Part shown: positions 1 to 16,406 of the stretch, in pieces | Numbering within the stretch: the stretch's first letter is position 1 | Layout of the letters: every line of letters starts with the position of its first letter | NCBI RefSeq assembly: GCF_016127575.1 | Contig: NZ_CP066019.1 | Location: 1,620,001-1,652,000, forward strand | DNA: 32,000 nucleotides | Direction: 5' to 3' | From: Cupriavidus necator | Lineage (GTDB): Bacteria > Pseudomonadota > Gammaproteobacteria > Burkholderiales > Burkholderiaceae | Notes under the pieces: model-generated | Database searches by the model: none | The model's input: the letters and a program-made list of their open reading frames with translations, nothing else | What the model was told of the DNA's origin: nothing | Program-made: the position numbers and the translations under genes

Positions 1-1
1 C

Positions 2-742
2 CGCGAACCGCGCGCGCTGCGCCTGACCGTCAGTGGCCAGCGCTATGCCGAGGTGGTGCAGCGCCTGCTGGTGGGCTGCGCCGAAGCGACCGAAGACGTG
101 ATGAAGGTGCGCAGCCATACCGCCCTGACGGTGGCGTGCTCCAGCGGCGTGGCGGTGCTGTGGCTGACGCCGCGGCTGGCCTCGTTCCGCGAGGCGCACC
201 CCGAGATCCAGCTGCGCCTGACCGTCAACGACAGCCTGGCGTCGCTGTCGCCGGCGGAGTTCGATATCGGCATGTACTACCTGCGCGAGGGCCCGCCGCC
301 GGGACTGGCAGCACGACGGCTGTATGGCGAGGAAGTGTTCCCGGTGTGCGCGCCGGGCTACCTGAACGGCCGCACGCTGGCCCCGGCCGCGCTGGCCAAT
401 GAAACGCTGCTGATGCTCGACGACGGCCAGCGCCAGTGGATGTCCTGGCAGACCTGGCTGGCCAACCAGGGCCTGCCCGACGCCACGCTGCGCAACGTGC
501 TCACCTCCAACCAGTACCCGATCCTGCTGCAGCTGGCCATGGAAGGCCATGGCATCGTACTGGGCTGGCGCCATATGATCGACGCCTGCCTGCGCGAAGG
601 CCTGCTGGTGCGCGCCAGCGAGGCCAGCGCCAGCCTGGGCGGCGGCTACTACGCGGTGTGGCCGCGCGACCGGATGGAACCGGCCGCGGCGCGCGCGTTC
701 CGCAGCTGGCTGGTGCGGCAGGCGACGCCTGCACCAGCCTGA
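2..742 (+). CDS. LysR-family transcriptional regulator, C-terminal part (5' end outside window)
   Basis: Frame 2 is open from the window edge. The translation shows a LysR substrate-binding domain (TVACSSGVAVLWLTPRLASFREAHPEIQLRL...GIVLGWRHMI). The N-terminal HTH is missing. Stop TGA at 740-742. Confidence 0.8.
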   Translation, partial: REPRALRLTVSGQRYAEVVQRLLVGCAEATEDVMKVRSHTALTVACSSGVAVLWLTPRLASFREAHPEIQLRLTVNDSLASLSPAEFDIGMYYLREGPPPGLAARRLYGEEVFPVCAPGYLNGRTLAPAALANETLLMLDDGQRQWMSWQTWLANQGLPDATLRNVLTSNQYPILLQLAMEGHGIVLGWRHMIDACLREGLLVRASEASASLGGGYYAVWPRDRMEPAAARAFRSWLVRQATPAPA

Positions 743-746
743 TCGC

Positions 747-1718
747 TCAGGAACCCGCCTTGTAGTTCGTATCCTTGACGATCTTCGCCCACCTTGCCGC
801 ATCCTCGGCAATGGTCGCGGCAAACTGCTCCGGCGTGCCGCCCACCACCTCATAGTCGATCGCTGCCAGGCGCTGCTTGATCTCGGGCTGCGCCAGGATG
901 CGGTTCACCTCCTGGTTCAGCCGCGTGACGATTTCCTTGGGCGTGCCAGCCGGTGCCAGCAGCCCCGCCCAGGAATTGAAGGCCATGCCGTCATAGCCGG
1001 CCTCATGCATGGTCGGCACGTCCGGCAGCGCGGGCGAGCGCTTGGACGCGAACACCGCCAGCGGACGCAGCTTGCCGGCCTTGATCATCGCCATGCCGTT
1101 GAACGGGTCGATGGTCATGTCGACCTCGCCTGCCACCACTGCCTGCATCTGCGGCCCGGTGCCGCGGTAAGACACGCTGACGACGTCCGGCGTGCCCGCC
1201 GCGGACTTGAAGGTGGCGCCGATCAGCTCGATCATGCTGCTGCCGGCCGACAGGCTCAGCGGCTTGGTCTTGGACTTGGCCAGCGCCACGAACTCCTGCA
1301 CGGTCTTGGCCGGCACCGACGGATGGACCACCATCACGAAGCCGATATTGCTGATCTGCGAGATCGGCGCAAAGCTCTTCAGCGGCTCATAGCCCGCCTT
1401 GTACAGCACCGGGCTGAGGGTCTGCGCGCCGGCGCTGTTCAGCAGCAGGGTGTAGCCGTCCGGCGCCGCGCGCGCCACGATGTCCGTGCCGATGATGCCG
1501 TTGGCTCCGGGACGGTTTTCCACCACCACCGACTGCTTGAGCGCTTCGCCCAGCTTCTGCGAAATCAGCCGCGCCACCACGTCTGTGGCCCCGCCTGGCG
1601 CAAACGGCACCACCATGCGGATCGGCTTGCTGGGATAGGTGTCACTCCAGGCCAACGCGGGCATCGCGCCCAGCATGGCGGCGCACAGCATCAGGCGGCG
1701 GCGCAAGTTCGGTTTCAT
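747..1718 (-). CDS. Bug-family (TctC-like) tripartite tricarboxylate transporter substrate-binding protein
   Basis: ATG at 1718 has GGAGA 7 nt upstream (1726-1730 rc). Signal peptide MKPNLRRRLMLCAAMLGAMPALAWS. Bug/TctC hallmark PIRMVVPFAPGGATDVVAR...ENRPGANG. The ORF-track start at 1787 lacks an RBS. Confidence 0.9.
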   Translation of the reverse strand: MKPNLRRRLMLCAAMLGAMPALAWSDTYPSKPIRMVVPFAPGGATDVVARLISQKLGEALKQSVVVENRPGANGIIGTDIVARAAPDGYTLLLNSAGAQTLSPVLYKAGYEPLKSFAPISQISNIGFVMVVHPSVPAKTVQEFVALAKSKTKPLSLSAGSSMIELIGATFKSAAGTPDVVSVSYRGTGPQMQAVVAGEVDMTIDPFNGMAMIKAGKLRPLAVFASKRSPALPDVPTMHEAGYDGMAFNSWAGLLAPAGTPKEIVTRLNQEVNRILAQPEIKQRLAAIDYEVVGGTPEQFAATIAEDAARWAKIVKDTNYKAGS

Positions 1719-1808
1719 CGGGTTGTCTCCTGGACGGCGGTTGTCGGAAGCCGGCACCGGCATGGCCAGCCATGGCTGCACCTGCATTTATTCATAGTTG
1801 TGAATTGG

Positions 1809-1836
1809 ATTTTACCCACATAAATTACCCCGTCAA
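1809..1836 (-). promoter_or_regulatory. sigma70-like promoter for the Bug gene (-35 TTGACG, 16-nt spacer, -10 TAAAAT)
   Basis: The reverse complement of 1831-1836 is TTGACG and of 1809-1814 is TAAAAT. The site lies in the only AT-rich patch upstream of the 747-1718 gene, about 90 nt before its ATG. Confidence 0.4.
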
Positions 1837-1953
1837 CCGAGGGTATGTGCGGACAGGCGGCCGACCGTGACACTGACGGTACCGACCCCGCCGGAAGTGC
1901 AGGCGAAGGACGCGGCCAACACGGTCTGCACCTGAGCCGCTGGGTTCAATCAT

Positions 1954-1985
1954 GCAAGAAGGGACGCCAAGGCGTCCCTTCTTGC
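1954..1985. terminator. Bidirectional intrinsic-terminator-like hairpin
   Basis: Perfect inverted repeat GCAAGAAGGGACGCC-AA-GGCGTCCCTTCTTGC. A GC-rich core stem (GGGACG/CGTCCC) is flanked by AAGAA / TTCTT arms, which gives a T-rich tail on either strand. It lies about 110 nt downstream of the SDR gene stop (minus strand). Confidence 0.5.
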
Positions 1986-2095
1986 TACTGCTTCCGAACC
2001 TCCGATTGGGGCGGAAGATGGTCACGTACCGGCCCTTGCGGGCAGGGAAATCGGCCGATATCCGGATGCTCGAAGGCGCGTCACAGCATTGATCG

Positions 2096-2806
2096 CTACC
2101 ACGGAATCGGCTGGCGATCGCGGAAGAAGCCGCCGGTGGGACCATCGTCGGGCAGCGTTGCCAGCCAGATCACAGTGTCGATGCACTGCTCCGGCGAGCG
2201 CGGCGCATCGGGGCCGCCCAGATCGGTGCGACACCAGCCCGGGCACACGGAGTTGACCTTGGCGCCGTGATCGGCCATCTCGGCGGCCAGGATGCGCGTG
2301 ACGGCATTCAGCGCCGTTTTCGAGATCCGGTAAGCCGGCACGCCGCGGCCCATCTCCGCCAATTGCCCCATGCCCGAAGCCAGGTTGACCACCCGGGCGG
2401 CGCGGCTGGCGCGCAGCAGCGGTGCCAGCGCCTGGGTGGTCCGCAGCACGCCGAACAGATTGGTTTCCAGGGTGCGGCGCAGGGTCTCGAGCGGCAGTTC
2501 GAGCAGGCTGGTGTGATAGTGGTCGAGCGAAACACCAGCGTTGTTGATCAGCACGTCCACGCGTCCGAAGCGTTCGCTCAGCCAGTTGGCCAGTGCGGCC
2601 GCCGAGCCTTCTTCCGTGACGTCAAGGCGGTGGCATGCGATCGGATGCCCCGCGAGCCGGAGCTCTGCCTCAAGCCCAGCGAGGTCCGCCGGCGTGCGCG
2701 CCGTGGCGACGACCAGATGGCCTTCAACAGTGGCCAGACGGCGCGTGGCTGCGCGGCCCAGGCCGCGGCTCGCGCCGGTGATGACGGTAATGGGTTGGTT
2801 GGCCAT
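2096..2806 (-). CDS. Short-chain dehydrogenase/reductase (SDR) family oxidoreductase
   Basis: ATG at 2806 has GGAGGA 8 nt upstream (rc of 2815-2820). Cofactor motif TGASRGLG, NNAG, and catalytic YRISK (YxxxK). Confidence 0.9.
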   Translation of the reverse strand: MANQPITVITGASRGLGRAATRRLATVEGHLVVATARTPADLAGLEAELRLAGHPIACHRLDVTEEGSAAALANWLSERFGRVDVLINNAGVSLDHYHTSLLELPLETLRRTLETNLFGVLRTTQALAPLLRASRAARVVNLASGMGQLAEMGRGVPAYRISKTALNAVTRILAAEMADHGAKVNSVCPGWCRTDLGGPDAPRSPEQCIDTVIWLATLPDDGPTGGFFRDRQPIPW

Positions 2807-2938
2807 GCCTGAGGTCCTCCTCGCTGGCGCAGATAACCCATCTATACACCGTCGATTACGACTTTTGTTAGGCGGATATCCGTGCCGGAACAAATCAGGA
2901 CCGAATTGGTTCTAATTTAAGAAATACTGGTGGCGACG

Positions 2939-3409
2939 ATGCTCAGACTTAGCAAGCTGACTGACTATGGCACGGTGATCATGACGCACCTGGCGCGCAA
3001 CCCGGGCCGGATCTACAGTGCGGCCGAGGTCGCCGCCGCGATCGGTGTGGCGGTTCCGACGGCAAGCAAGATTCTGAAGATGCTGGCAAGGCACCACTTG
3101 CTGGAGTCTCTGCGCGGTGCCAATGGCGGCTACCTGCTGGCGCGACCGCCGGGACAGATTTCGATCGCACAGGTGATTGACGCCATGGAAGGCCCGGCCG
3201 GCATGACCGAGTGCAGTGTCGCTGCCGGCCTGTGTGCGCAGGAAGGCCTGTGCGCCATCCGCGCCAACTGGCAATCGATCAATCAAGTCATCTTTAGCGC
3301 ACTGAATGGCGTGACGCTGGCGGATATGGCGCAACCGGTGTTGCACCCGGTGGATATCGGCGCCTTGCGCGCCCGACGCGCAAACGGGCCGCAAGCTGAC
3401 ATTTTGTGA
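2939..3409 (+). CDS. Rrf2-family transcriptional regulator (IscR/SUF-regulator-like), first gene of the suf cluster
   Basis: The N-terminus [11 protein letters not shown]... and wHTH ([28 protein letters not shown]) are typical of Rrf2. A three-Cys motif [14 protein letters not shown] (CX6CX5C) is a likely Fe-S ligand set. GTG at 2930 is an alternative start. Confidence 0.85.
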
Positions 3410-3440
3410 TTCAGGTGACAGTGGCAAGCGAAGGCAAACC

Positions 3441-4889
<1,449 letters not shown>

Positions 4890-4901
4890 AAGAAGCCAGC
4901 C

Positions 4902-5644
<743 letters not shown>

Positions 5645-5648
<4 letters not shown>

Positions 5649-6976
5649 GCGCAAGCGGACTGGAGCACTATCTCGCCGAGTTCGCCCGCGTCGAGGCCGC
5701 ACTGCCCGGCCGCCGTCTGGGCTGGCTTGCGCACGCGCGGCGGCAGGCGCTGGATCATTTCGCCCAGGCCGGGTTCCCCACGCTGCGCCACGAGGACTGG
5801 AAATACACCAGCGTGGCCGCACTCGAGCGAAGCCGCTTTGCCGTGGCACTGCCGCAGGCCGGCGACAGCCCGGACCCCGCGGTGGCAGCCCAGATCGAGG
5901 CGCTTGCCCTGGCCGGCGCGCAGCTGATGGTGTTCGTCAATGGCACGCACCAGCCGCAATGGTCGCGCATCGGCACCCTGCCTGCGGGCATCGAGCTGGC
6001 CAGCCTCGCCGCGACGCTGGAGCGCGCGCCGGACTGCCTGGAAGCGCTGCTGTTGTGTCGCACAAGCGACTACCCGTCCGGCTTCGCCGCCTTGAACATG
6101 GCGTTCATGACCGACGGTGCCTATATCCGCGTGGCGGCCGGCACCGTCCCGGAACAACCGATCCACTTGCTGTTCCTTGCCACCGCTGCCGAACTGGCAA
6201 CCCATGCGCGCAACCTCGTGGTGGCGCAAGCCGGCAGCCAGGTCTGCATCGTGGAGCACCACGCCGGCCTGGATGGCCTGGCCTATTGCACCAATACCAT
6301 CACTGACATCGTTGCCGAGCGTGATGCGCAGGTCGAACATCACAAGCTGCAGCAGGAGAGCCTCAAGGCCTTCCATATCGCCGGCGTGAACCTGGACCAG
6401 CGGCAGGGTAGCCGCTGCGCCTCCAGTTCCTTTGCCCTGGGCGGCGCCCTGGCGCGGGTCGACATCAATGTCGGGCTGAATGCCGAGCATACCGAGTGTT
6501 CGCTGGACGGGCTGTATATGACCGCCGGGCGGCAGCATGTCGACCACCACACCCGCGTCGACCACGCCAGCCCGCACAGCAAGAGCCGCGAGTTGTACAA
6601 GGGCGTACTGGCGGGCGCCTCGCGCGCCGTCTTCAACGGCAAGGTGGTAGTGCATGCCGATGCCCAGCACAGCGATGCGCACCAGTCCAACCGCAATCTG
6701 CTGCTGTCCGACCAGGCCGAGGTCGACACCAAGCCGCAACTGGAGATCTATGCCGACGACGTCAAATGCGGCCACGGCGCCACCGTCGGCCAGCTCGACG
6801 CCGAGCAGATCTACTACCTGCGCTCGCGCGGGATGGACGATGCCGCGGCGCGTGCGCTGCTGACCTTTGCCTTCGCCGAAGAGGTCGTCAGGCGGCTCGG
6901 CCCTGCCCCATTGCGCACGCGGCTGGAAACGCTCTTGCGCGGCAAGCTGCCGGAGCCTGTGAAGGAGCTGCCATGA
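5645..6976 (+). CDS. sufD: Fe-S cluster assembly protein SufD
   Basis: 443 aa. The C-terminal SufB/D beta-helix region (NLLLSDQAEVDTKPQLEIYADDVKCGHGATVGQLD) is typical, as is its position between sufC and sufS. ATGA overlaps occur at both ends. Confidence 0.93.
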
Positions 6977-8241
6977 ACACGGCTGCGCATGAACGGATGG
7001 CCGTGGAGCACGCGGTGCCGGCCGCCAGCCTGGAGGTGGAGCGGCTGCGGAAGGATTTCCCGATCCTGCGCCAGACCATCAACGGCAGGCCGCTGGTCTA
7101 TCTGGACAACGCCGCCACCACCCAGAAGCCGCAAAGCGTGATCGATTGCGAAGCGCATTACTACGCCGCGCTCAACGCCAATATCCACCGCGGCGTGCAT
7201 ACCCTGAGCCAGCGCGCCACCGATGCCTACGAGGCCGCGCGCGACGCAGTGCGAGACCTGATCAACGCCGCCGGGCGCGAGGAAATCGTGTTCGTGCGCG
7301 GCACCACCGAGGCCATCAACCTGGTGGCGGCAAGCTTCGGCCAGCGCCTGCGCCCGGGCGACGAGGTCCTGATCAGCGCGATGGAGCACCACTCCAATAT
7401 CGTGCCGTGGCAACTGGCGTGCCAGCGCACCGGCGCCTTGCTGCAGGTGGCGCCGATCAACGATGCCGGCGAGCTGATGCTGGAGCAGTTCGCGCGATTG
7501 CTCGGCCCGCGCACCAGACTGGTCGCGCTGACGCACCTCTCCAACGCGCTTGGCACCGTCAACCCGGTGCGGCACATCATCGAGCTGGCGCATGACCATG
7601 GCATCCCGGTGCTGATCGATGGCGCCCAGGCCGTGCCGCACCTAAAGGTCGACGTGCAGGCCCTCGATTGCGATTTCTACGCGTTCTCCGGGCACAAGCT
7701 TTACGGGCCCACCGGCGTCGGCGTGCTCTACGGCAAGGCCGCGCTGCTCGATGCCATGCCGCCTTACCAGGGCGGCGGGGACATGATTCGCGAGGTCACG
7801 TTCCGCAAGACCACATACAACGAGCTGCCCTACAAGTTCGAGGCGGGCACCCCCAATATCGCCGGCGTCATCGCCCTTGGCGCCGCCATCGGGTACGTGC
7901 GCGCGCTCGGCCTGGAAGCCATCGCCGCCCACGAGCACGCGCTGCTCGCTTACGCCAGCGCGCAGGCAGCAAGGATCGCCGGCCTGCGCATGATCGGCAC
8001 GGCTGCCGACAGGGCGAGCATCCTCTCGTTCACGCTGGACGGCATCCATCCCCACGATGTCGGCACCATCCTCGATCAGCACGGCGTCGCGGTCCGTGCC
8101 GGCCACCATTGCGCCATGCCGGTGATGGAGCGCTTCGGCGTGCCCGCCACGGTGCGCGCTTCCTTCGCGCTGTACAACACGCGTGAAGAGGTGGATGCAC
8201 TGTTTGCTGCCGTGCGCGCGGCACAGGAGGTATTCGCCTGA
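6973..8241 (+). CDS. sufS: Cysteine desulfurase SufS (group II, PLP-dependent)
   Basis: ATG at 6973 overlaps the sufD stop and has GAAGGAG upstream. Motifs: DFPIL...YLDNAATTQKP, PLP lysine in FSGHKLYGPTG, catalytic Cys in RAGHHCAMP. The ORF-track start at 6496 runs through sufD in another frame. Confidence 0.95.
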   Translation: MNTAAHERMAVEHAVPAASLEVERLRKDFPILRQTINGRPLVYLDNAATTQKPQSVIDCEAHYYAALNANIHRGVHTLSQRATDAYEAARDAVRDLINAAGREEIVFVRGTTEAINLVAASFGQRLRPGDEVLISAMEHHSNIVPWQLACQRTGALLQVAPINDAGELMLEQFARLLGPRTRLVALTHLSNALGTVNPVRHIIELAHDHGIPVLIDGAQAVPHLKVDVQALDCDFYAFSGHKLYGPTGVGVLYGKAALLDAMPPYQGGGDMIREVTFRKTTYNELPYKFEAGTPNIAGVIALGAAIGYVRALGLEAIAAHEHALLAYASAQAARIAGLRMIGTAADRASILSFTLDGIHPHDVGTILDQHGVAVRAGHHCAMPVMERFGVPATVRASFALYNTREEVDALFAAVRAAQEVFA

Positions 8242-8687
8242 TGTCTGACCTGCGCAGCCTCTACCAGGAAGTGGTTGTCGACCACAGCCGCTCGCCGCGC
8301 AATTTCGGGCGGCTGGCGGCAGCGAACCGCAGCGCCGAGGGCTTCAACCCGCTGTGCGGCGACCGGCTGACGCTGTACCTGAGAATCCGCGACGCGGTGA
8401 TCGAAGACGCCAGCTTCGAGGGCTCGGGCTGCGCCATCTCCACTGCCTCTGCGTCGCTGATGACGGAAGCGCTCAAAGGCAAGACCGAGGCGCAGGCGCG
8501 GGCCTTGTTCTGCGGCTTCCACGCGCTGGTCACCGGAAAGCCGGGGCAGTCCGAAGTGCCGATGGGAAAGCTGGAAGTCCTGGCCGGCGTGCGCGAGTTC
8601 CCGGCGCGCGTGAAGTGCGCCACCCTGGCCTGGCATACCATGCAAGCCGCTTTGGAGAACAGCGCCAGGCCGGTCTCAACGGAGTAG
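8241..8687 (+). CDS. sufU: SufU-type (NifU/IscU-like) sulfur acceptor/scaffold protein
   Basis: The start overlaps the sufS stop (TGATG). A Cys/Asp/Cys/Cys ligand set is present (NPLCGDRL, GSGCAIS, RVKCATLAW). There is no LPPVK motif. N-terminus LYQEVVVDHSRSPRNFG. Confidence 0.85.
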   Translation: MSDLRSLYQEVVVDHSRSPRNFGRLAAANRSAEGFNPLCGDRLTLYLRIRDAVIEDASFEGSGCAISTASASLMTEALKGKTEAQARALFCGFHALVTGKPGQSEVPMGKLEVLAGVREFPARVKCATLAWHTMQAALENSARPVSTE

Positions 8688-8693
8688 AACCCC

Positions 8694-9062
8694 ATGAGCA
8701 TGATCGATTGGCTGCACAAGGCCAGGGAACACGAAGACAGGTTCGAGGCTGAGCCGGACAGCCTCGAGGGGCGGGTGATAGCGGCCTTGCGCACGGTGTA
8801 CGACCCCGAGATCCCGGTCAATATCTACGACCTTGGCCTGATCTACCAGCTATCGGTGGACGAAGCCAGCGGCAAGGTCGGGATCCGCATGACGCTGACC
8901 GCGCCGGGCTGCCCGGTGGCGCAGACCTTCCCCGGCGTGGTGGAGAGCGCGGTGATGGAAGCCAGCGGGGTGGACGCGGTCGAGGTAGAACTGGTGTGGG
9001 ACCCGCCCTGGTCGAGAGAACGGATGAGCGAGGCGGCACGCCTGGAACTGGGGCTGCTCTGA
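8694..9062 (+). CDS. sufT: SufT-like DUF59 Fe-S assembly protein
   Basis: DUF59/MIP18 core VYDPEIPVNIYDLGLIY...MTLTAPGCP. It lies 6 nt after sufU. Confidence 0.8.
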   Translation: MSMIDWLHKAREHEDRFEAEPDSLEGRVIAALRTVYDPEIPVNIYDLGLIYQLSVDEASGKVGIRMTLTAPGCPVAQTFPGVVESAVMEASGVDAVEVELVWDPPWSRERMSEAARLELGLL

Positions 9063-9063
9063 G

Positions 9064-9384
9064 ATGAGCGAGTGGATCGATGTCGCCCGAGCCGAGGACT
9101 TCGCGCCCGGCACTTGCCGCAGCGTCGATATCGATGGCGTCCAGGTCGCGGTATTCAATGTGGATGGCAATTACTACGCCATCGAGGACCTCTGCTCGCA
9201 TGAGGCCGAGCCGCTCTGCGGCGGCGACGTGGAAGGCCAGGAAGTCGTCTGCCCGCGCCACGGCTCGCACTTTTCCCTGCTGACGGGCGAGGCGCTGTCC
9301 CCGCCCGCCTACGAGCCGGTGGCGACGTTCCCGGTCCGGGTGGCGGACGGCAAGGTGCAGGTCAGGGACGAGCGCGGGGAATAA
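9064..9384 (+). CDS. Rieske [2Fe-2S] ferredoxin-like protein, terminal gene of the suf cluster
   Basis: Rieske ligands CSHEAEPL...CPRHGSHF (CxH...CxxH). 106 aa. It starts 1 nt after the sufT stop. Confidence 0.85.
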   Translation: MSEWIDVARAEDFAPGTCRSVDIDGVQVAVFNVDGNYYAIEDLCSHEAEPLCGGDVEGQEVVCPRHGSHFSLLTGEALSPPAYEPVATFPVRVADGKVQVRDERGE

Positions 9385-9452
9385 GCGTACAACCCCGATC
9401 AGTCACTTGGCCGGGGGCGGGTCTGGACGCACTGTCGCCAGGCTGCGCCGCC

Positions 9453-9481
9453 TTGCCATCCCCGCCGATCCCATCTCTAAT
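9453..9481 (+). promoter_or_regulatory. sigma70-like promoter upstream of the cyclase-STAND gene (-35 TTGCCA, 17-nt spacer, -10 TCTAAT)
   Basis: TTGCCA at 9453-9458 and TCTAAT at 9476-9481 each match the consensus at 5/6 positions. The site is about 45 nt before ATG 9527. No terminator hairpin is seen between the Rieske gene and this site, so read-through from suf is also possible. Confidence 0.35.
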
Positions 9482-9526
9482 AGTCTTGAGTACCGTCCAG
9501 GCAACCAACGACGGCCAGGAGGCGAA

Positions 9527-12500
9527 ATGCGCTGCACCAGTTGCGGTTTCGCGAACCTCGCGGGAGCCAACTTCTGTGAGGCGTGCGGAGCAAAGCTTGG
9601 CCGAGCCTGCCCTCAGTGTGGTGAGGAAGCCACTGCAGCCGCGAAGTTCTGCCGCGCTTGCGGCTTTGCGCTGACCGACGCCCCGGTCGGCACCGCTGCC
9701 ACGCCAGCGCCGCCCGCGGCCACGGCCCCGGTCCTCTACACCCCGCCCCACCTTGCCGGGCGCATCCTGGCCGAACAGGCGGCAATGGAGGCCAGGGGCG
9801 AGACCGCCGGCGAGCGCAAGACCATCACCGCGCTGTTTGCCGACATGGCCGGCTCGACCGCGCTGACGCAGGACCTCGACCCCGAAGACGCGCGCCGGCT
9901 GATCGACCCCGTGGTGACGCTGATGATGGAAGCCGTCCACCACTATGAGGGCTATGTGGCCAAGTTCCTCGGCGACGGCATCCTGGCGCTGTTCGGCGCG
10001 CCGATTGCCCACGAGGACCATGCCTTGCGCGCGCTCTACGCGGCGCTGCGCATGCAGGACGCGATGCATCGCCACAGCGACCGGGTGCGGCTGGAGCAAG
10101 GCATCCCGCTGCAGATCCGGATCGGCGTCCATACCGGCGAAGTCGTGGTGCGCTCGATCCGCAAGGATGACCTGCACACCGACTACGATCCGGTCGGGCA
10201 CACCATCCATATCGCTTCGCGCATGGAGGGGATTGCCACGCCGGCGTCGATCCTTGTCAGCGAATCGACCCACAAGCTCACCGAAGGCTATTTCGAGTTC
10301 ACGGCGCTGGGGACCACCCATGTCAAGGGCGTGCGGGATCCGCTCGCGGTATATGAAGTCGTCGGCCTGGGAGCCTTGCGCACGCGCCTGCAGGTGGCCG
10401 CGCACCGCGGCCTCGCCAGGTTTGTCGGGCGCCAGGATGAGCTGGCGCACTTGCACGCGGCGCTGGGGCAGGCCAAGGCTGGACACGGGCGCATTGTTGC
10501 GGTGGTCGGCGAAGCGGGGGTCGGCAAGTCCCGGCTGTTCCATGAGTTCAAGGTCAGATCGCAGCAGGGCTGCCTGGCGCTGGAGACCTTCTCGGTCTCG
10601 CACGGCAAGGCGTTTGCCTACCTGCCGCTGATCGAGATGCTGAAGAGCTATTTCCAGATCACGGCGCAGGACGGCGACCGCAGCTGCCGCGAAAAGGTGA
10701 CCGGCAGGCTGCTGACCCTGGACCGTTCGTTGGAAGAACACCTGCCCTACCTGCTCTACCTGCTCGGCACCATCGAGCCCGACTCGCCGTTGCCGACCAT
10801 GGACCCGACCATCCGGCGCCAGCGCACCTTCGAGGCGATTGCGCGGCTGCTGGTCCGGGAAAGCCTCAACCAGCCGCTGGAAGTCATTTTCGAAGACCTG
10901 CAATGGCTGGACGGTGAGACCGAGGCCTTCCTCAATATGCTGATCGACCATGTGCCCGGCGCGCGCATCCTGCTGCTGGTGAACTACCGGCCGGAGTACA
11001 GCCATCGCTGGAATGCGGACGGGCATTATTCGCAGCTGCAGCTGCAGCCGCTGGGGCAGGCGGAGGCGCAGGAACTGCTGACCGCGCTGCTCGGGGACGA
11101 CCGCAGCCTGGTGCCGCTGAAGCGGCTGATCCTCGACAAGACCGAAGGCAACCCCTTCTTCATGGAGGAAGTGGTCCAGACCCTGGCCGAGGAAGGCGCG
11201 CTGCTCGGCCAGCCCGGCTGCTACCGCATCGAGACCGCGCCGGCCCTGCTCCATATCCCCACCACCGTGCAAGGCGTGCTGGCCGCCCGTATCGACCGGC
11301 TGCCGCTGGCCCAGAAGGAGCTGTTGCAGACCCTGGCCGTGATTGGCAAGGAGTTCCCGCTGAGCCTGGTCCTGCGCGTGACCGGCTTGCCGGAAGACCA
11401 CCTGCATCCGCTGCTGTCCGACCTGCAGGCTGCGGATTTCATCTACGAACGGCCGGCATTCCCTGAGGTCGAGTACGCCTTCAAGCACGCGCTGACCCAG
11501 GAGGTGGCCGGCAGCTCGCTGCTCACCGAGCGGCGCAGCGCCTTGCATGAAAGCTCCGCCCAGGCCATCGAGGCGCTCTTCCATGGCCGGCTCAAGGACT
11601 ACTGCAGCGAACTGGCGCACCACTACAGCAACAGCGGCAACATCCCGAAGGCGGTCGAGTACCTGCACTGCGCCGGCCAGCAAGCCCTGCTGCGCTCGGC
11701 GCAGGCCGAAGCGATCCGGCACCTGAGCATGGCCATCGACCTGCTCAAGCGGCAACCCGACAGTGCCGAACGCGCGCGCCAGGAACTGACGCTGCTGCTT
11801 GCGCTCGGGCCGGCCCTGATTGCGGCCCGGGGCCAGGCATCGCCCGAAGTCGAGGGCAATTACCGGCGTGCGCTGGCCTTGTGCGAGCAAGGCCAGCAGA
11901 CGCCCTACCTGTTCTCGGCACAGCTGGGGTTGTGGGCGTTCTATCAGCTTCGTGCGCAATACGAGGTCTCGCTGCCTTTGGGCAAGCGGCTGCTTGCGCT
12001 GGCCATGAAGTCGCAGAAGCCCAAGCAGCTGGCGGAGGGCCATCGCGCGATCGGCGCCACGCTGTTCCGCCTTGGCATGCTGGACGCCGCGCGCAAGCAT
12101 GTTGAGGCGGTGCTCGCGGTGCCGCATCCTGAGCAACCGGCGTACGACTTCCTCACGGGCTACGGGCGCGACCCGGCCGTCCACGCCACCAGCACGCTGG
12201 GCTGGATCCTGTGGTACCAGGGCTTGGCGGACCAGGCACTGGCGCGCTGCCAGGAGGCGCTGGCCATGGCCCGTGCCCGCCCGGATGCGTACAACCTTGC
12301 CCTGTGCCTGGTCTTTGCCGCGGAACAGCATCAATGCCGGCACGAAGTCCGGCTGACACAGGAGTACGCCGAAGCCGCCATCGCCATCTCGGGCGAACAG
12401 GGTTTTCCGATCTACCTGGCGTGGGGCACCGTCCTGCAGGGCTGGGCGATGGCGGCGCTGGGCAGTCACCAGGAAGGCGTTGCGCTGATGCGCCAGGGCG

Positions 12501-12994
12501 TGGCCGCCTATGAGGCCACCGGCGGCAGACTGGGCATGCCGAACCTGCTGGCCCTGGTTGCCGAGGCCTGCGGCAAGGCAGGCCAGACCACCGCCGCGCT
12601 GGACGTGCTCACGCAGGCACAAGCGCTGGTGGAAGAGACCGGAGAACGGCTGGATGAGGCAACCGTGTACCGGCTGCGCGCCGAGATGCTGCTGCAGCTG
12701 TCGGCAGAGCGCCCTGCGCCGCCGGCCGCGCAGGAGGAAGCCGAAGCCTGCTTGCACCGGGCCATCACGGTCGCCCACGAACAAGGTGCAAAGCCGCTGG
12801 AGCTGCAGGCCACCCTGAGCCTGGCCCGGCTGTGGCGGCAACAAGGCAAGGTCGACGCGGCGCGTCAAGTGCTGGCGCGGGTCCACGGCAGCTTCAGCGA
12901 GGGCACCGACACCGCGGACTGGCAGGAGGCCCAGGCGCTGCTTGCAGCGCTGGCGGCCGACCAGGCCAATACCCCGGAGCGCCCCCACGCATGA
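9527..12994 (+). CDS. Multidomain signalling protein: double zinc ribbon, class III adenylate/guanylate cyclase domain, STAND (AAA_16-like) NTPase, TPR-like repeats
   Basis: ATG at 9527 is preceded by AGGAGG (9517-9522). Four CxxC pairs lie in residues 3-45, followed by a P/A-rich linker. Cyclase motifs: FADMAGST, KFLGDG, GHTIHIASRME. Walker A GEAGVGKS (from 10508) and Walker-B-like VIFEDLQWLD follow. The C-terminal ~500 aa form a helical-repeat region. 1155 aa. Confidence 0.9.
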   Translation: MRCTSCGFANLAGANFCEACGAKLGRACPQCGEEATAAAKFCRACGFALTDAPVGTAATPAPPAATAPVLYTPPHLAGRILAEQAAMEARGETAGERKTITALFADMAGSTALTQDLDPEDARRLIDPVVTLMMEAVHHYEGYVAKFLGDGILALFGAPIAHEDHALRALYAALRMQDAMHRHSDRVRLEQGIPLQIRIGVHTGEVVVRSIRKDDLHTDYDPVGHTIHIASRMEGIATPASILVSESTHKLTEGYFEFTALGTTHVKGVRDPLAVYEVVGLGALRTRLQVAAHRGLARFVGRQDELAHLHAALGQAKAGHGRIVAVVGEAGVGKSRLFHEFKVRSQQGCLALETFSVSHGKAFAYLPLIEMLKSYFQITAQDGDRSCREKVTGRLLTLDRSLEEHLPYLLYLLGTIEPDSPLPTMDPTIRRQRTFEAIARLLVRESLNQPLEVIFEDLQWLDGETEAFLNMLIDHVPGARILLLVNYRPEYSHRWNADGHYSQLQLQPLGQAEAQELLTALLGDDRSLVPLKRLILDKTEGNPFFMEEVVQTLAEEGALLGQPGCYRIETAPALLHIPTTVQGVLAARIDRLPLAQKELLQTLAVIGKEFPLSLVLRVTGLPEDHLHPLLSDLQAADFIYERPAFPEVEYAFKHALTQEVAGSSLLTERRSALHESSAQAIEALFHGRLKDYCSELAHHYSNSGNIPKAVEYLHCAGQQALLRSAQAEAIRHLSMAIDLLKRQPDSAERARQELTLLLALGPALIAARGQASPEVEGNYRRALALCEQGQQTPYLFSAQLGLWAFYQLRAQYEVSLPLGKRLLALAMKSQKPKQLAEGHRAIGATLFRLGMLDAARKHVEAVLAVPHPEQPAYDFLTGYGRDPAVHATSTLGWILWYQGLADQALARCQEALAMARARPDAYNLALCLVFAAEQHQCRHEVRLTQEYAEAAIAISGEQGFPIYLAWGTVLQGWAMAALGSHQEGVALMRQGVAAYEATGGRLGMPNLLALVAEACGKAGQTTAALDVLTQAQALVEETGERLDEATVYRLRAEMLLQLSAERPAPPAAQEEAEACLHRAITVAHEQGAKPLELQATLSLARLWRQQGKVDAARQVLARVHGSFSEGTDTADWQEAQALLAALAADQANTPERPHA

Positions 12995-13635
12995 CCTCGA
13001 CGCCAGGCCTCCCCCTGCAAGACCGCTTCGTCGCGCTGTGGACACGTGCGGGCGGCACGCACGCGGCCGACGCCTATGCCGATCTCGCTCGTTGCTACGG
13101 TGAGCCGACGCGGCACTACCACACCCTCGACCATGTCCGTCGCTGCCTGCAAGACCTGGACTGGGCGCGCAGCGCGATACCGGATACCGACGAGGTGGAA
13201 CTGGCGCTCTGGTGCCACGACGTCATCTACGTGCCCGGCGCCACGGACAACGAGCAACGCAGCGCCGCATGGTTGCGCCATTGGTCGGGCGGCAGCATCG
13301 CCGCCGCCGCGCGCGTGGCCGCCCTTATCCTGGAAACCACCCACGCCGAAGTGCCGGCAAGCCTGGCCGGCCGCTTCACCGCCGACATCGACCTGGCGGC
13401 GCTGGGCTGCAGCCGCGCGCGCTTCCAGGAAAATGGCGCCAACCTGCGGGCCGAACGCACCGACCTGGACGACGCCGCCTATGACGCCGCCGAGCGCGCC
13501 TTCCTGAGTGCGCTGCTGGCCAGCCCGCGCATCTACACCACCGACCTGTTCCAGGCGCGCTACGAGGCGCAGGCACGCGCCAACCTGACGTGGCGGCTGG
13601 CGCAGCCGGCCTGGCCTACAGGAACTCCCCGCTGA
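12991..13635 (+). CDS. HD-domain metal-dependent phosphohydrolase-like protein of an uncharacterised family (COG4339-like)
   Basis: ATG at 12991 overlaps the TGA of the upstream gene (ATGA at 12991-12994). GGAG lies 11 nt upstream. Motifs RHYHTLDH and LWCHDVIY match the H...HD signature. The upstream extension of the ORF to 12832 is Arg/Gly-rich and overlaps the cyclase gene. Confidence 0.8.
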   Translation: MTSTPGLPLQDRFVALWTRAGGTHAADAYADLARCYGEPTRHYHTLDHVRRCLQDLDWARSAIPDTDEVELALWCHDVIYVPGATDNEQRSAAWLRHWSGGSIAAAARVAALILETTHAEVPASLAGRFTADIDLAALGCSRARFQENGANLRAERTDLDDAAYDAAERAFLSALLASPRIYTTDLFQARYEAQARANLTWRLAQPAWPTGTPR

Positions 13636-14647
13636 TATCGATGCTGGAGCGCCGGCCCACGCTGTCGTAGTGCTGCTCCAGCCACCGGCTCGCTTCTGCG
13701 CGGCCCTTGTCGCGCAGCGAGCACAGGAAATTCCAATCGGCGTTGTACTTGGTGGAAACCCCCAGCGCGGCCATGGTCTGGTCCGAGCGGATCGAATGGA
13801 TCCACACCTCCTTCATCTCCGTGCCGTCGAGCTTGCCCTGCTGGATCAGCGACGTGACGAAGGCAATGGCGCGCATCTCGCGCATCAGCGACGAGTTGAA
13901 GCTGACCTCATTGACGCGATTCAGAATATCCGCGGCCGTGGTCGGCACGCCGTGGCGCACGATCGGGTTGATATGGACGATCACCACATCGTGGGTCTGG
14001 CAGTGATAGATCAGCGGGAAAATCGCCGGGTTGCCGACATAGCCGCCATCCCAGTAGTGCTGGCCGTCGATGCTGACCGCCTGGAACAGCGTGGGCACGC
14101 AGGCCGAGGCCAGCACGGCGTCGATGCTGAGTTCCTCGGGCGGGAAGATGCGTATCCGGCTGGTCTCGATATTGGTCGCACACAGGTAGAGCCGGATCGG
14201 GCAATGCTCGCGCAGTGCCGCAAAGTCGACCTGGCTGCCGAGCACGTCGCGCAGCGGATTGAGGTTGTTGGGATTGAACTGGTACGGCGACAGCAGGCGC
14301 AGCGCGATGTCGGCCATCGCATACATCGGCGAATGGTTCAGGCCCAGCGTATGGCTGCTCTTGAACCAAGGCAGCCACCGGAACGGGTTGTAGCGCTGCG
14401 CCGAGTGCGCGATCGCCTCCCAGAAATCATGCAAGGCCAGGCGCGCGCCGTCACTGCCGCCCTGCAGCAGCCCGTAGGCCAGCACGGTGGCGTTCATGGC
14501 CCCGGCGCTGGTGGCGCTGACGCCTTCGATCGCCAGCCTGCCGTCCTCCAGCAGCCGGTCGAGCACGCCCCAGGTAAAGGCGCCATGCATGCCGCCGCCC
14601 TGCAGGGCGAGCGCCACAGGCTTGGGTTGTGCAGGCTCTGGCTGCAT
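13616..14647 (-). CDS. Patatin-like phospholipase family protein
   Basis: Oxyanion motif LQGGGMHGAF, nucleophile elbow SATSAGA (GxSxG variant with Ala in the first position), Asp of the dyad in YWDGGYVGNPA. A long C-terminal extension follows. The 3' end overlaps the HD gene by 20 nt. Confidence 0.9.
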   Translation of the reverse strand: MQPEPAQPKPVALALQGGGMHGAFTWGVLDRLLEDGRLAIEGVSATSAGAMNATVLAYGLLQGGSDGARLALHDFWEAIAHSAQRYNPFRWLPWFKSSHTLGLNHSPMYAMADIALRLLSPYQFNPNNLNPLRDVLGSQVDFAALREHCPIRLYLCATNIETSRIRIFPPEELSIDAVLASACVPTLFQAVSIDGQHYWDGGYVGNPAIFPLIYHCQTHDVVIVHINPIVRHGVPTTAADILNRVNEVSFNSSLMREMRAIAFVTSLIQQGKLDGTEMKEVWIHSIRSDQTMAALGVSTKYNADWNFLCSLRDKGRAEASRWLEQHYDSVGRRSSIDISGEFL

Positions 14648-14789
14648 GCGGTCTTCCCTTCAGCGGCGGCAACCCGCCATGCTCAAGTGTAGGGAAGAAC
14701 TGTGCGTGCAGCGTAGTGCCGGACGCGCGCAGTGGCACACAGCACGTGTGCCCTGGCCAGGCAGGACCAGGGCCGCAAGCTCCGGGACG

Positions 14790-16406
14790 ATGCGCTGGCG
14801 CATAACGCAACTGAGCCAGGCTGCGGCCAGGTACTACAATGGCCGCATAAAAGCAGAACAGCTTTCCTTCGTGCGTCAAATACCTCACTTTCCGGCCCGC
14901 AAAGCCATTTCCCGCCCGGCCTCCCTGATCGTTGCCGCCAGCCTTGTCCTGGTCTGCATGATCGCGGCCCTTGGTGCCCTCGCCCTGGTGCAGATGCGCA
15001 GGGATGCACTGGACAATGCCAGCGAGGCCTCGGCCAACCTGGCGCTGACGCTGGAACGCAGCATCACGCGCAACCTGCAGATCCATGAGCTGGCAATCGG
15101 GGGCATAGTGGAAGCCATGCACGATCCCGCACTGCTGGCGCAACCGCCGGCGCTGCGCCAGCGGCTGCTGTTCGACCGCTTGATCAACGCCGAAGACATG
15201 GGCTCGCTGCTGGTCACCGACGCCAACGGCACGCTGGTGTTCGACTCGCACCAGTGGCCGCCGCGCCCGGTCAACGTTTCTGACCGCGACTACTTCCAGG
15301 TCCACCGCAGCGGCGATCACAGCGGCCTGTTCCTGAGCCGGCCGTTCCAGCCGCGCCTGGCGCCGGAGAACAAGTCCATCGGCATCAGCCGGCGGCTTTC
15401 CGCACCGGACGGCAGCTTTGCCGGCACCGTGGTCGGCACCTTGCGCCTGAACTACTTCCGCAAGCTGTTCGATGGCGTAAGCCTTGGCGCGGGCGGCACC
15501 CTGACGCTGCTGCGCACGGACGGCACCATCATCATGCGGCGGCCCTATGAAGCCGAATCGATCGGGCGCGACATCTCCGGCAGCCCGTCATTTGCACCGC
15601 TGCTGCAAGGCACGCAAGGCACGTTTATCGGCGTCGCGGCAGTCGACGGGGTGCAGCGGCTCTACAGCTTCAGGCGCACTCCGGGCTTTCCGCTGCTGGT
15701 CGTGGTGGGACGCGCCACCCACGACGTGCTGGCACCCTGGCACAAGCGCGCCTGGGTGTTCGGGGCGATGATCATCGCGCTGGACGCTGCCATCATCGCG
15801 CTCTCGGTATTGCTGTCGCGCCAATGGCGGCGCCGTGTCGAGATGGAAGAGCACCTGCGCTGGATGGTCAACACCGATGGCCTGACCGGCCTTGGCAGCC
15901 GCCGTGCGCTGGACGATGCCGCCGACGTGGAATGGCGGCGCGCGCGCCGCCACAGCCAGCCTTTGTCGCTGCTGATGCTGGACGTCGACCACTTCAAGGA
16001 ATTCAATGACCGCTACGGCCACCAGGCCGGTGACGATGCGCTGGCAGCGGTGGGCGCCTGCATCCAGCGCCAGGTGCGGCGGCCGGGCGACTATGCGGGG
16101 CGCTATGGCGGCGAAGAGTTTGCCATCCTGCTGCCGCACACCAACGCTGCCGGCGCGGCCGCCATGGCGGAGGCCATCCGCGCTGCCGTCCAGGCCTTGC
16201 AGATTCCGAATGCTGCCGGTGCCGACGGGCACTTGACGGTCAGCATCGGTGCGGTGACCGATGCCAACGGCCCCGGCAACGAAAAGGATTTCGCCGAGCT
16301 GCGCGCCTTTCTCCGTGCCGGCGACGAAGCGCTCTACCTGGCCAAGCGCTCCGGGCGCAATTGCGTCGCAACCTTCGGCGCCACGGCAGCGGCGATGGCG
16401 TCCTGA
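14790..16406 (+). CDS. Membrane sensor diguanylate cyclase (TM, Cache-like periplasmic domain, TM, GGDEF)
   Basis: TM1 ASLIVAASLVLVCMIAALGALALV, Cache-like segment (VSDRDYFQV...ISRRL), TM2 AWVFGAMIIALDAAIIALSVLL. The GGDEF domain has an active GGEEF and an RPGD I-site 5 residues upstream. The start is uncertain (ATG 14790 has a weak RBS). Confidence 0.85.
   Translation: MRWRITQLSQAAARYYNGRIKAEQLSFVRQIPHFPARKAISRPASLIVAASLVLVCMIAALGALALVQMRRDALDNASEASANLALTLERSITRNLQIHELAIGGIVEAMHDPALLAQPPALRQRLLFDRLINAEDMGSLLVTDANGTLVFDSHQWPPRPVNVSDRDYFQVHRSGDHSGLFLSRPFQPRLAPENKSIGISRRLSAPDGSFAGTVVGTLRLNYFRKLFDGVSLGAGGTLTLLRTDGTIIMRRPYEAESIGRDISGSPSFAPLLQGTQGTFIGVAAVDGVQRLYSFRRTPGFPLLVVVGRATHDVLAPWHKRAWVFGAMIIALDAAIIALSVLLSRQWRRRVEMEEHLRWMVNTDGLTGLGSRRALDDAADVEWRRARRHSQPLSLLMLDVDHFKEFNDRYGHQAGDDALAAVGACIQRQVRRPGDYAGRYGGEEFAILLPHTNAAGAAAMAEAIRAAVQALQIPNAAGADGHLTVSIGAVTDANGPGNEKDFAELRAFLRAGDEALYLAKRSGRNCVATFGATAAAMAS

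Follow-up and report, generated by a model that had tools for sequence, protein, structure and literature searches.

The window analyzed here is a stretch of 32,000 nucleotides (nt) from Cupriavidus necator (contig NZ_CP066019.1, positions 1,620,001 to 1,652,000), and it carries three adjoining genes that encode a class III cyclase fused to a STAND-type NTPase and a TPR region (the cyclase-STAND protein), a predicted HD-motif phosphohydrolase of the COG4339 type (the HD protein) and a patatin-like esterase (the patatin). We propose that this trio is a chromosomal cyclic-nucleotide signalling module of Burkholderiaceae, in which the cyclase-STAND protein would be the writer, the HD protein the eraser and the patatin the output, and we give this reading a probability of about 0.5. 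The sequences of the three products match CAJ96306, CAJ96307 and CAJ96308 of chromosome 2 of C. necator H16 exactly, and the starts and ends of all three genes are reproduced by independent gene calls on three public contigs. No description of a cyclase, patatin and HD trio was found among the papers searched. We regard it as a real, undescribed signalling module of the cyclic AMP (cAMP) type, of a writer/eraser/effector kind that is already known, and the general link of the HD family to class III cyclases is its most novel element.

To explore how constantly the three genes occur together, we used an HD-centred scan with an alignment of HD homologues and one genome per species, which gave 106 matches; the best 80 were used (individual loci are cited as L001 and so on), and trio membership was determined by tblastn with the window proteins together with a profile of the cyclase domain. 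All 80 loci belong to Burkholderiaceae, namely to Cupriavidus, Ralstonia, Pandoraea, Paraburkholderia, Burkholderia and Trinickia. The patatin gene adjoins the HD gene in 76 of the 80 loci, or 76 of the 78 that are uncut by a contig end; among the other four, L033 and L047 run into a contig end, and L064 and L079 are truly without it. A full-length cyclase-STAND orthologue with 60-95% identity adjoins in 62 loci, and the profile finds an open reading frame (ORF) with a cyclase domain beside the HD gene in 71, one of which (L039) is a remnant. Three gene orders are seen. In 26 loci of the Cupriavidus type, including the window, the cyclase and HD genes run in the same direction and the patatin gene converges on them; in 37 loci of Paraburkholderia, Burkholderia and Trinickia the order is cyclase, patatin and HD, all co-directional with gaps of 15-260 nt; and in one locus, of Pandoraea terrae, the HD gene faces a convergent patatin gene that is followed by the cyclase gene in the direction of the HD gene. 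The most widespread flanking gene family is present in at most 9 of the 80 loci. Because the three genes stay together despite a rearranged order and changing flanks, which is a classical signature of a functional unit, the cyclase, HD and patatin genes are very probably functionally linked. A preliminary description of this region, made from its sequence alone, had suggested that the trio works as a unit around a cyclic nucleotide, an idea that these counts support, and it had raised the possibility that cyclase-STAND orthologues usually lack the two neighbours; the syntenic orthologues keep both the HD and the patatin gene in 62 genomes of six genera.

Two of the 80 loci have an unusual large gene. 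In Trinickia dinghuensis (L035, 5347-9909) an ORF of 1520 amino acids (aa) joins the cyclase-STAND and patatin sequences; we did not count it as a fusion, since it is a frameshift read-through in which the last ~90 TPR residues are replaced by an Arg-rich out-of-frame sequence that runs into the patatin frame, due to either a sequencing error or a recent mutation. In Paraburkholderia sp. DGU8 (L039, 7550-8740) the large gene has shrunk to a 396-aa protein of Zn-ribbon and TPR, with the NTPase and most of the cyclase domain deleted, and the patatin and HD genes are intact.

The two overlaps that the preliminary description had pointed out are both present in the window. The stop codon of the cyclase gene overlaps the start of the HD gene in an ATGA at 12991-12994. 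An ATGA likewise ends the cyclase gene in 20 of the 26 Cupriavidus-type loci, and in 14 of those the aligned HD protein begins with that ATG, which points to translational coupling of cyclase and HD. The convergent patatin gene shares 20 nt with the HD gene (13616-13635), and the convergent overlap is exactly 20 nt in 20 of the 26 Cupriavidus-type loci. It is kept in most species although the sequence of the HD C-terminal tail varies, and the 3' ends of the HD and patatin mRNAs would be complementary across it. In six loci (L013, L044, L046, L048, L050 and L052) the cyclase-STAND frame continues for 200-470 nt beyond the region of homology and enters the HD gene in another frame; either the usual stop codon has been lost there, as it seems, or the extension is an open-frame artefact of high-GC DNA.

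It is also evident that the HD and patatin pair can be accompanied by other cyclases. In nine loci the pair lies beside a different class III cyclase, and the patatins of these nine are 52-55% identical to that of the window in six loci and 75-77% identical in L038, L039 and L078. The alternative cyclases include a 405-aa REC-cyclase whose gene comes straight after that of a hybrid histidine kinase (L080), cyclase-FHA proteins of ~310-370 aa (L020, L026, L045 and L078) and Fer2-cyclases of 565 aa (L038 and L060); the K/D/N residues are canonical in the REC and FHA variants, and the specificity positions of the Fer2 variants are occupied by Q/T. In two Cupriavidus loci, L044 and L049, a second, short cyclase gene of the FHA type (5431-6435 and 5368-6345, respectively, both on the minus strand) accompanies the cyclase-STAND gene and lies divergently upstream of it, and the same cyclase-FHA architecture is found beside distant HD homologues in Contendobacter-like genomes (L103, L106 and L108). 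Because cyclase-FHA occurs both in Cupriavidus loci and with distant HD homologues, the association of HD with cyclase-FHA may be the older pairing. To judge from gene content, HD plus patatin is the constant core and the cyclase is exchangeable, with four input types: STAND-TPR, REC with a histidine kinase, FHA and Fer2.

The cyclase-STAND protein itself has the architecture that the preliminary description had assigned to it, an N-terminal cyclase followed by a STAND NTPase and a C-terminal repeat region, since Pfam finds DZR, Guanylate_cyc, AAA_16 and TPR in its 1155 aa. The cyclase domain scores 91.4 bits with the class III cyclase profile PF00211 (cut-off 21.9), and its closest solved relative is Cya2 (PDB 2w01, E 3e-30). 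D106, K146, D150, D221 and R232 are invariant in 63 orthologues; D106 and D150 are the metal-binding aspartates, and K146 and D221 form a specificity pair of the adenine type. Because of this signature cAMP is the likeliest product, and we consider it moderately probable that the signal nucleotide of the module is cAMP, most likely in the 3',5' form. The GEAGVGKS and VIFEDLQWLD motifs noted previously lie at aa 328-335 and 453-462, and their key residues are invariant among the orthologues: the Walker A sequence GEAGVGKS is unchanged in 63 of 63, and FEDLQWLD differs in one orthologue by E to D, the other seven residues being invariant. The protein thus combines a P-loop NTPase bearing Walker A and B with a helical-repeat sensor downstream of it, as judged by Pfam and the 63 orthologues.

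Certain mycobacterial and TOMM cyclases have the same layout, in which the class III cyclase domain precedes an AAA_16/STAND NTPase and helical repeats. The mycobacterial proteins Rv0386, Rv1358 and Rv2488c also carry ATPase and TPR modules; compared with these cyclase-ATPase-TPR-LuxR proteins, the cyclase-STAND protein has no LuxR helix-turn-helix (HTH) and has an N-terminal double Zn-ribbon, and its specificity residues are K/D, not Gln/Asn as in Rv0386. The model of the TOMM kinase/cyclase fusion family, TIGR03903, aligns with aa 88-1100 at 435 bits, which is below its cut-off of 705.75; the model was matched from position 276 onward only, and unlike members of that family, the cyclase-STAND protein contains no kinase domain. 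It differs from both groups in that its gene is genetically coupled to HD and patatin genes. By these comparisons the large protein is of the known cyclase-ATPase-TPR kind, minus the HTH or kinase modules; a CHD+LuxR subfamily of mycobacterial cyclases has been described (PMC3466318).

The HD protein was labelled as such in the preliminary description, and the label is borne out by invariant motifs and an all-helical model, not by profile matches, because Pfam, NCBIfam and PADLOC searches with the 214-aa protein gave no match (with Pfam, none even at E 10). Two of its relatives reach E 0.005 and 0.15 with Pfam models of the HD (PF01966) type. A single-sequence search against PDB sequences found nothing; matches to PDB from one profile (A1) were rejected as spurious, and another profile (A3) gave one marginal HMMER match, the HD structural-genomics protein 3b57 (E 0.05). 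The motifs H44xxxH48, H76D77 and D132xD134 are invariant in the HD protein's alignment, and H44, H48, H76, D77, E88, D132 and D134 are invariant across the whole family. The AlphaFold model is all-helical (pLDDT 92), and H48, H76-D77 and D132 give the H...HD...D metal motif on a helical fold. A fold search with this model gave no match at E <=0.001 (best Foldseek E 0.036), and the matches obtained are all HD-fold proteins, with PDE10, PDE5 and PDE2 the commonest and the structural-genomics proteins 2pjq and 2pq7 also among them. Class I cyclic-nucleotide phosphodiesterases (TM-score 0.55-0.61), a group heavily over-represented in PDB, make up the majority of the top 50. Membership of the HD superfamily is thus indicated by the invariant motifs, the AlphaFold model, the fold matches and the marginal profile hits taken together. 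The HD protein resembles class I phosphodiesterases in its all-helical HD fold and in the order of the residues HxxxH ... HD ... N/E ... H ... D. However, in place of their signature HDxxHxGxxN it has HDVIYVPGATDNE, it is ~100 residues shorter than the catalytic domains of eukaryotic phosphodiesterases, the PDEase_I profile of Pfam does not match it, and its sequence and fold matches to class I phosphodiesterases and to YpgQ-like hydrolases are not significant.

The HD family is uncharacterised, has neither a Pfam model nor a solved structure, and is large: a profile search of 1.84 billion cluster representatives at E <=0.001 returned 13,609 clusters at 50% identity, mostly stand-alone proteins of ~210 aa. 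Rare fusions include P0142 (1091 aa), in which an NhaP-type Na/H exchanger and a domain binding cyclic nucleoside monophosphates (cNMP_binding) are joined to HD, and P0165 (766 aa), with TIR, helical repeats and HD. We examined the neighbourhoods of ten distant members on long contigs, which are 31-42% identical to the HD protein of the window with all key residues conserved; the sample is small and shows two recurring themes from which no frequency can be derived. A class III cyclase gene lies within 3 kb of the HD gene in seven of these ten loci, and a gene for a cNMP-binding protein lies immediately 5' of it in four. In one theme (L101, L104, L107 and L109) an ABC transporter gene, the cNMP_binding gene and the HD gene run in the same direction toward a convergent class III cyclase gene, and in L101 the HD start overlaps the end of the cNMP-binding gene. 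In the other (L103, L106 and L108), genes for a NudC-like NUDIX protein, HD and cyclase-FHA follow one another, and no cyclase gene is near HD in L100 and in L102 and L105, two contigs resembling the candidate phyla radiation (CPR). Including the trio of Burkholderiaceae, three independent neighbourhood themes join the HD family to class III cyclases. Because a writer (the cyclase), a reader (the cNMP-binding protein) and a metal-dependent phosphohydrolase come together in one set, eraser would be the simplest role of the hydrolase, and we see about an even chance that the HD protein is a phosphodiesterase that degrades the signal. Neither COG4339 nor a bacterial HD-type phosphodiesterase for cAMP from this family turned up in the papers searched. 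Distant homologues of HD, 25-37% identical, also occur in 109 Pseudomonas megaplasmid records (for example L084 and L085) and in jumbo phages of Rhizobium (RHph_N46, L086), Brevundimonas, Rhodococcus and Acinetobacter, in every case as solitary genes surrounded by hypothetical ones, which gave no hint of function. Should the family prove to degrade cyclic nucleotides, its members in phages might serve as counter-defence enzymes.

The patatin passes the Pfam Patatin model PF01734 (82 bits, cut-off 27.7). Alignment with PlpD and a Haloferax protein places its Gly-rich loop at G17-G19, its nucleophile at S47 in ATSAG, where the first Gly of GxSxG is Ala, and its aspartate at D200 in DGG. By sequence, its sole solved homologue is PlpD (PDB 5fqu, E 5e-7). 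Full-length homologues with 33-34% identity were found on haloarchaeal replicons, among them a 321-aa patatin-like protein encoded after an SDR gene on pHM500 of H. mediterranei, which is 34% identical over 323 aa (E 5e-46), C-terminal domain included, and whose G16, S47 and D195 align with the Gly-rich loop, serine and aspartate of the window patatin. We take this gene to be PhaZh1, from the SDR-patatin cluster and from the residues G16, S47 and D195; the bdhA-phaZh1 cluster and the PhaZh1 residue numbers were reportedly given by Liu et al. in 2015. The window patatin thus shows full-length homology of the PhaZh1 type, catalytic residues and C-terminal domain included. It differs from PhaZh1 in having no adjacent bdhA, in being paired with HD and a cyclase, and in a lipase box that starts with Ala. 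Similarly, homologues of the window patatin with 50-55% identity adjoin bdhA or SDR genes, namely bdhA-2 in Rhizobium etli (54.6%) and an SDR gene with a GntP permease gene in C. pauculus (50%); an SDR gene also adjoins the homologue in Haloarcula (34%), and a GntP permease gene those in Aminobacter (48%) and Roseomonas (47%). The GntP family includes 3-hydroxybutyrate (3HB) permeases, and to our knowledge all genera that carry the trio accumulate polyhydroxybutyrate (PHB). HD-less and cyclase-less patatin homologues, 49-56% identical, are present in rhizobia and Azospirillum; in R. etli (L088, 12198-14051) and Azospirillum argentinense (L089, 13476-15002) the HD-less patatin gene is followed, 4-5 kb downstream, by a gene for a class III cyclase, and since both genomes are rich in cyclases this proximity may be chance. 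The window patatin was not equated with the granule-associated patatin of H16, because the latter is A0225 on chromosome 1 and the window gene is on chromosome 2. PhaZh1 (HFX_6464) is associated with polyhydroxyalkanoate (PHA) granules and has depolymerase activity (PMC6520949). Hydrolysis of PHB or of 3HB esters as the output of the module is thus a lead, and a tentative one.

Taken together, these results suggest the following working model. The TPR/STAND part of the large protein, as sensor and writer in one, would read a ligand, and NTP-dependent oligomerisation would bring the class III cyclase domains into the dimers needed for catalysis, with 3',5'-cAMP as the most likely product. The patatin, a predicted Ser47/Asp200 esterase of the PhaZh1 subfamily, would be the output, its activity being switched by the nucleotide either directly or via the HD protein. 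The HD protein, presumably coupled translationally to the writer in Cupriavidus, would act as a metal-dependent phosphodiesterase on the cyclic nucleotide, and its activity would determine the threshold of the signal and how long it lasts. The result would more likely be the hydrolysis of storage polyester (PHB or 3-hydroxybutyrate esters) or lipid than the killing of an infected cell. Within this model, the domain make-up, the intact and conserved catalytic residues and the gene linkages are direct observations, and the nucleotide, the HD chemistry, the control of the patatin and its substrate are inferred. A bolder version would make the COG4339-type HD proteins a large, overlooked family of phosphodiesterases for cyclic nucleotides in bacteria, one of which, together with a STAND-gated adenylyl cyclase, would form a cAMP switch in Burkholderiaceae on a PhaZh1-type patatin mobilising PHB or lipid; as a whole it appears doubtful to us.

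Several observations weigh against the proposed signalling module. In the cyclase domain the canonical transition-state Asn is replaced by H228, with His in 62 of the 63 orthologues; the mycobacterial cyclase Rv1900c, which is active, also has His at this position. No cNMP-binding, GAF or CARF/SAVED domain was recognised in any trio protein by Pfam, NCBIfam or PADLOC. The fold matches of the HD protein to phosphodiesterases are weak (E 0.04-0.3, rmsd 6-7 Å), and 3b57, its sole marginal match by sequence profile, is presumably to be grouped with YpgQ-like NTP pyrophosphohydrolases. HD family members without a cyclase in the vicinity are found in tiny CPR genomes, jumbo phages and megaplasmids, so that the family is not tied to cyclases everywhere. 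The link to PHB consists of the 34% identity and of the neighbours of homologues; gene calls show no bdhA or pha gene in the window, the bdhA cluster being seen for homologues only. Moreover, seven uncut loci hold an HD gene without an adjoining cyclase, five of them with patatin, and in an eighth (L039) the cyclase is a remnant. Among 16 PLSDB records with a cyclase-STAND homologue of at least 60% identity, the trio is found only in four Burkholderia replicons, and in the other twelve, mostly Cupriavidus megaplasmids, the homologue is 62-70% identical and an orphan among metabolic genes. A close patatin paralogue (68% identical) likewise stands alone elsewhere in Cupriavidus, on a C. necator plasmid. 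In genomic terms the HD subfamily is the committed partner, and the cyclase-STAND gene looks like one member of an expanded paralogous family.

Some of these points could be explained if HD and patatin were a two-enzyme metabolic pair, carrying out for instance an ester hydrolysis and then a phosphoester step, and if the cyclase only fed a general cAMP pool and a Crp-type regulator with no dedicated circuit. The several partnerless paralogues in Cupriavidus suggest such a shared pool, the cyclase-free loci that keep the patatin would be expected, no nucleotide-binding domain is seen in the patatin, and the patatin subfamily is widespread in alphaproteobacteria without HD or cyclase. We nevertheless consider a metabolic pair unlikely, because four unrelated cyclase architectures have been independently recruited to the same two genes, because in other phyla HD genes lie beside cyclases without patatin and often right after a cNMP-binding gene, which ties HD to the nucleotide and not to the lipase, and because the ATGA junctions argue for translational coupling of HD with the cyclase. 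Alternatively, the HD protein could be a receptor and not an eraser, binding the cyclic nucleotide and acting as an activating or inhibiting subunit of the patatin, comparable to patatin enzymes that need a protein cofactor. The HD subfamily almost never occurs without patatin, the patatin has no recognisable nucleotide-binding domain of its own, and its subfamily works elsewhere without HD, so that HD could be an added regulatory layer. The family-wide invariance of H44, H48, H76, D77, E88, D132 and D134, however, speaks for catalysis and not mere binding, and a separate cNMP-binding protein is already encoded beside HD in four distant loci; we consider a receptor role quite improbable.

The preliminary description had favoured an immune framing akin to NLR, Avs, CBASS and Pycsar systems. 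In such a scheme the trio would act by anti-phage abortive infection: the STAND/TPR part would detect a phage protein, the cyclic nucleotide would activate the patatin against the membrane as in CapV, and HD would buffer accidental firing. The combination of an NTPase switch, a repeat sensor, a nucleotide writer and a patatin does resemble Avs, Pycsar and CBASS, and the PycC models of PADLOC match the cyclase domain (best E 5e-18), as would suit the Pycsar layout of a class III-type cyclase beside a presumed effector. CBASS type II with CapV offers a further likeness, a nucleotide-making enzyme with a cytoplasmic patatin-fold hydrolase that has no classical nucleotide-binding domain. In addition, the module is found in differing genomic contexts and is patchy, with only ~106 matches at species level among the genomes scanned, distant HD homologues are carried by jumbo phages and megaplasmids, a TIR+HD fusion exists, and cNMP cyclases fused to STAND-like NTPases have been reported in conflict systems, patatin not being mentioned there (PMC7159879).

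Against this, PADLOC on the three proteins matched no system, which agrees with the earlier statement that the trio fits none of the named ones: besides PycC on the cyclase domain it gave no match for the HD protein and weak, partial matches for the patatin, where the CBASS_lipase model NF041079 reached 25.5 bits (cut-off 200) over aa 174-210 only. Neither a known defence STAND model nor a defence-island context was found for the cyclase-STAND protein with PADLOC and the neighbouring genes. No Pycsar effector, that is a cNMP-binding domain fused to a transmembrane or TIR domain, was found in the HD or patatin protein, and no CD-NTase (SMODS) for CBASS is present in the locus. Moreover, the cyclase differs from that of Pycsar in being fused to a STAND switch, in having specificity residues of the purine (adenine) type and in a context that is not defence-like, and the patatin differs from CapV in belonging to another subfamily, the PhaZh1-like one, and its closest characterised homologue is a PHA depolymerase. 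A survey of 138 nearest-neighbour proteins from the 80 loci by Pfam and PADLOC points the same way. They are mostly LysR regulators (11), aldehyde dehydrogenases (5) and AMP-binding enzymes (4), with GGDEF proteins, alcohol dehydrogenases and transporters also present; no integrase or transposase is among their 25 commonest Pfam families; and PADLOC shows no enrichment, with few scattered generic matches, those to PycC being the variant cyclases themselves. The window module lies between a suf operon and metabolic genes, and orphan cyclase-STAND paralogues of 62-70% identity exist. Finally, the two-component (REC after a histidine kinase), FHA and ferredoxin (Fer2) inputs of the variant cyclases are typical of physiological signalling. 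The immune framing is therefore not supported, and we regard a defence function as rather improbable.

The cyclase and HD genes may also be under a control of their own. The preliminary description had given them their own near-consensus promoter, of which the first part can be kept and the second cannot. A simple sigma-70 scan of 9000-15200 returned no site, as it does not tolerate the C that stands second in the -10 hexamer; we did not accept this as proof that there is no promoter, since phylogenetic footprinting shows a conserved element. When the 160 nt before the start codons of 23 Cupriavidus and Ralstonia orthologues were aligned, conservation was confined to the promoter-like element and the ribosome-binding site; the DNA farther 5' does not align, since different species have different genes there. 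A pattern search found TTGnnn-N16/17-TnTAAT between -60 and -76 relative to the ATG in all 25 loci of the Cupriavidus/Ralstonia/Pandoraea type (in one as TGTAAT) and in none of 36 Paraburkholderia, Burkholderia and Trinickia loci checked. Because the element is kept amid unalignable DNA, it is a conserved control element of the cyclase-HD pair in the Cupriavidus lineage, and may be either a sigma-70 promoter or a regulator-binding site. Directly 5' of the TTGCCA box, short tandem repeats with units such as CGCCACTACCG or CCACCACCCGG are present in three Cupriavidus species (L014, L016 and L017).

The features of the window are collected in Table 1. On its 5' side the module is preceded by a complete suf operon for Fe-S assembly (Rrf2, SufB, SufC, SufD, SufS, a SufU-like protein and SufT/DUF59), of which a small Rieske ferredoxin gene, directly 5' of the module, is the last gene on that side; among the 80 related loci, this neighbourhood is common to L001 only. 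On the 3' side, gene calls give a dCache-GGDEF diguanylate cyclase, a molybdopterin oxidoreductase, LysR and MarR regulators, TctC and a sulfatase. The GGDEF gene lies between the patatin and oxidoreductase genes and is also found in L001, L004 and L006, whereas the oxidoreductase gene follows directly after patatin in the Cupriavidus loci L002, L005, L007, L008 and L010; because it is absent from this position in several Cupriavidus species, the GGDEF gene appears to be a lineage-specific insertion beside the module.

Table 1. Features of the module and its flanks, in window coordinates
Feature	Position	Strand	Description	Basis
suf operon and Rieske gene	1-9384	+	Fe-S assembly	gene calls
Rieske ferredoxin gene	9064-9384	+	small; last gene on the suf side	gene calls
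Promoter-like element	9453-9481	+	TTGCCA (9453-9458), 17-nt spacer, TCTAAT (9476-9481)	read by eye; footprinting
Ribosome-binding site	9517-9522	+	AGGAGG, 4 nt 5' of ATG	read from sequence; GGAG conserved in the 23-sequence upstream alignment
Cyclase-STAND gene (proposed sensor-writer; CAJ96306)	9527-12994	+	1155 aa	ORF list and gene calls
Double zinc ribbon	9533-9664	+	aa 3-46	Pfam DZR E 5e-10, Zn_Ribbon_1 E 6e-10
Class III cyclase catalytic domain	9815-10354	+	aa 97-276	Pfam Guanylate_cyc E 7e-26
STAND-type NTPase (AAA_16)	10418-10972	+	aa 298-482; Walker A GEAGVGKS, Walker B-like FEDLQWLD	Pfam E 1e-21
C-terminal helical-repeat (TPR) region	11924-12880	+	aa ~800-1118; presumed sensor	Pfam TPR_12, TPR_2, TPR_16
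HD-motif phosphohydrolase gene, COG4339-type (predicted; CAJ96307)	12991-13635	+	214 aa	ORF list and gene calls
Patatin-like esterase gene (CAJ96308)	13616-14647	-	343 aa	ORF list and gene calls
dCache-GGDEF diguanylate cyclase gene	14790-16406	+		gene calls

Class III cyclase-STAND/TPR proteins are abundant in soil bacteria and mycobacteria, and almost none has a known output; one of them is now tied to two partner genes, so that input and output can be tested in the tractable strain H16. For annotation, the results advise caution, as a layout of STAND, cyclase and patatin is insufficient for calling a defence system. If the HD family consists of phosphodiesterases, the annotation and the understanding of bacterial cAMP/cGMP turnover would change, with "erasers" as neighbours of many class III cyclases. 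Should PHB granules be the substrate of the patatin, second-messenger signalling would be linked to polyester mobilisation, which bears on bioplastic production. The module would then be a bacterial counterpart of cAMP-stimulated lipolysis via patatin-domain lipases, in the model PHB producer C. necator H16.

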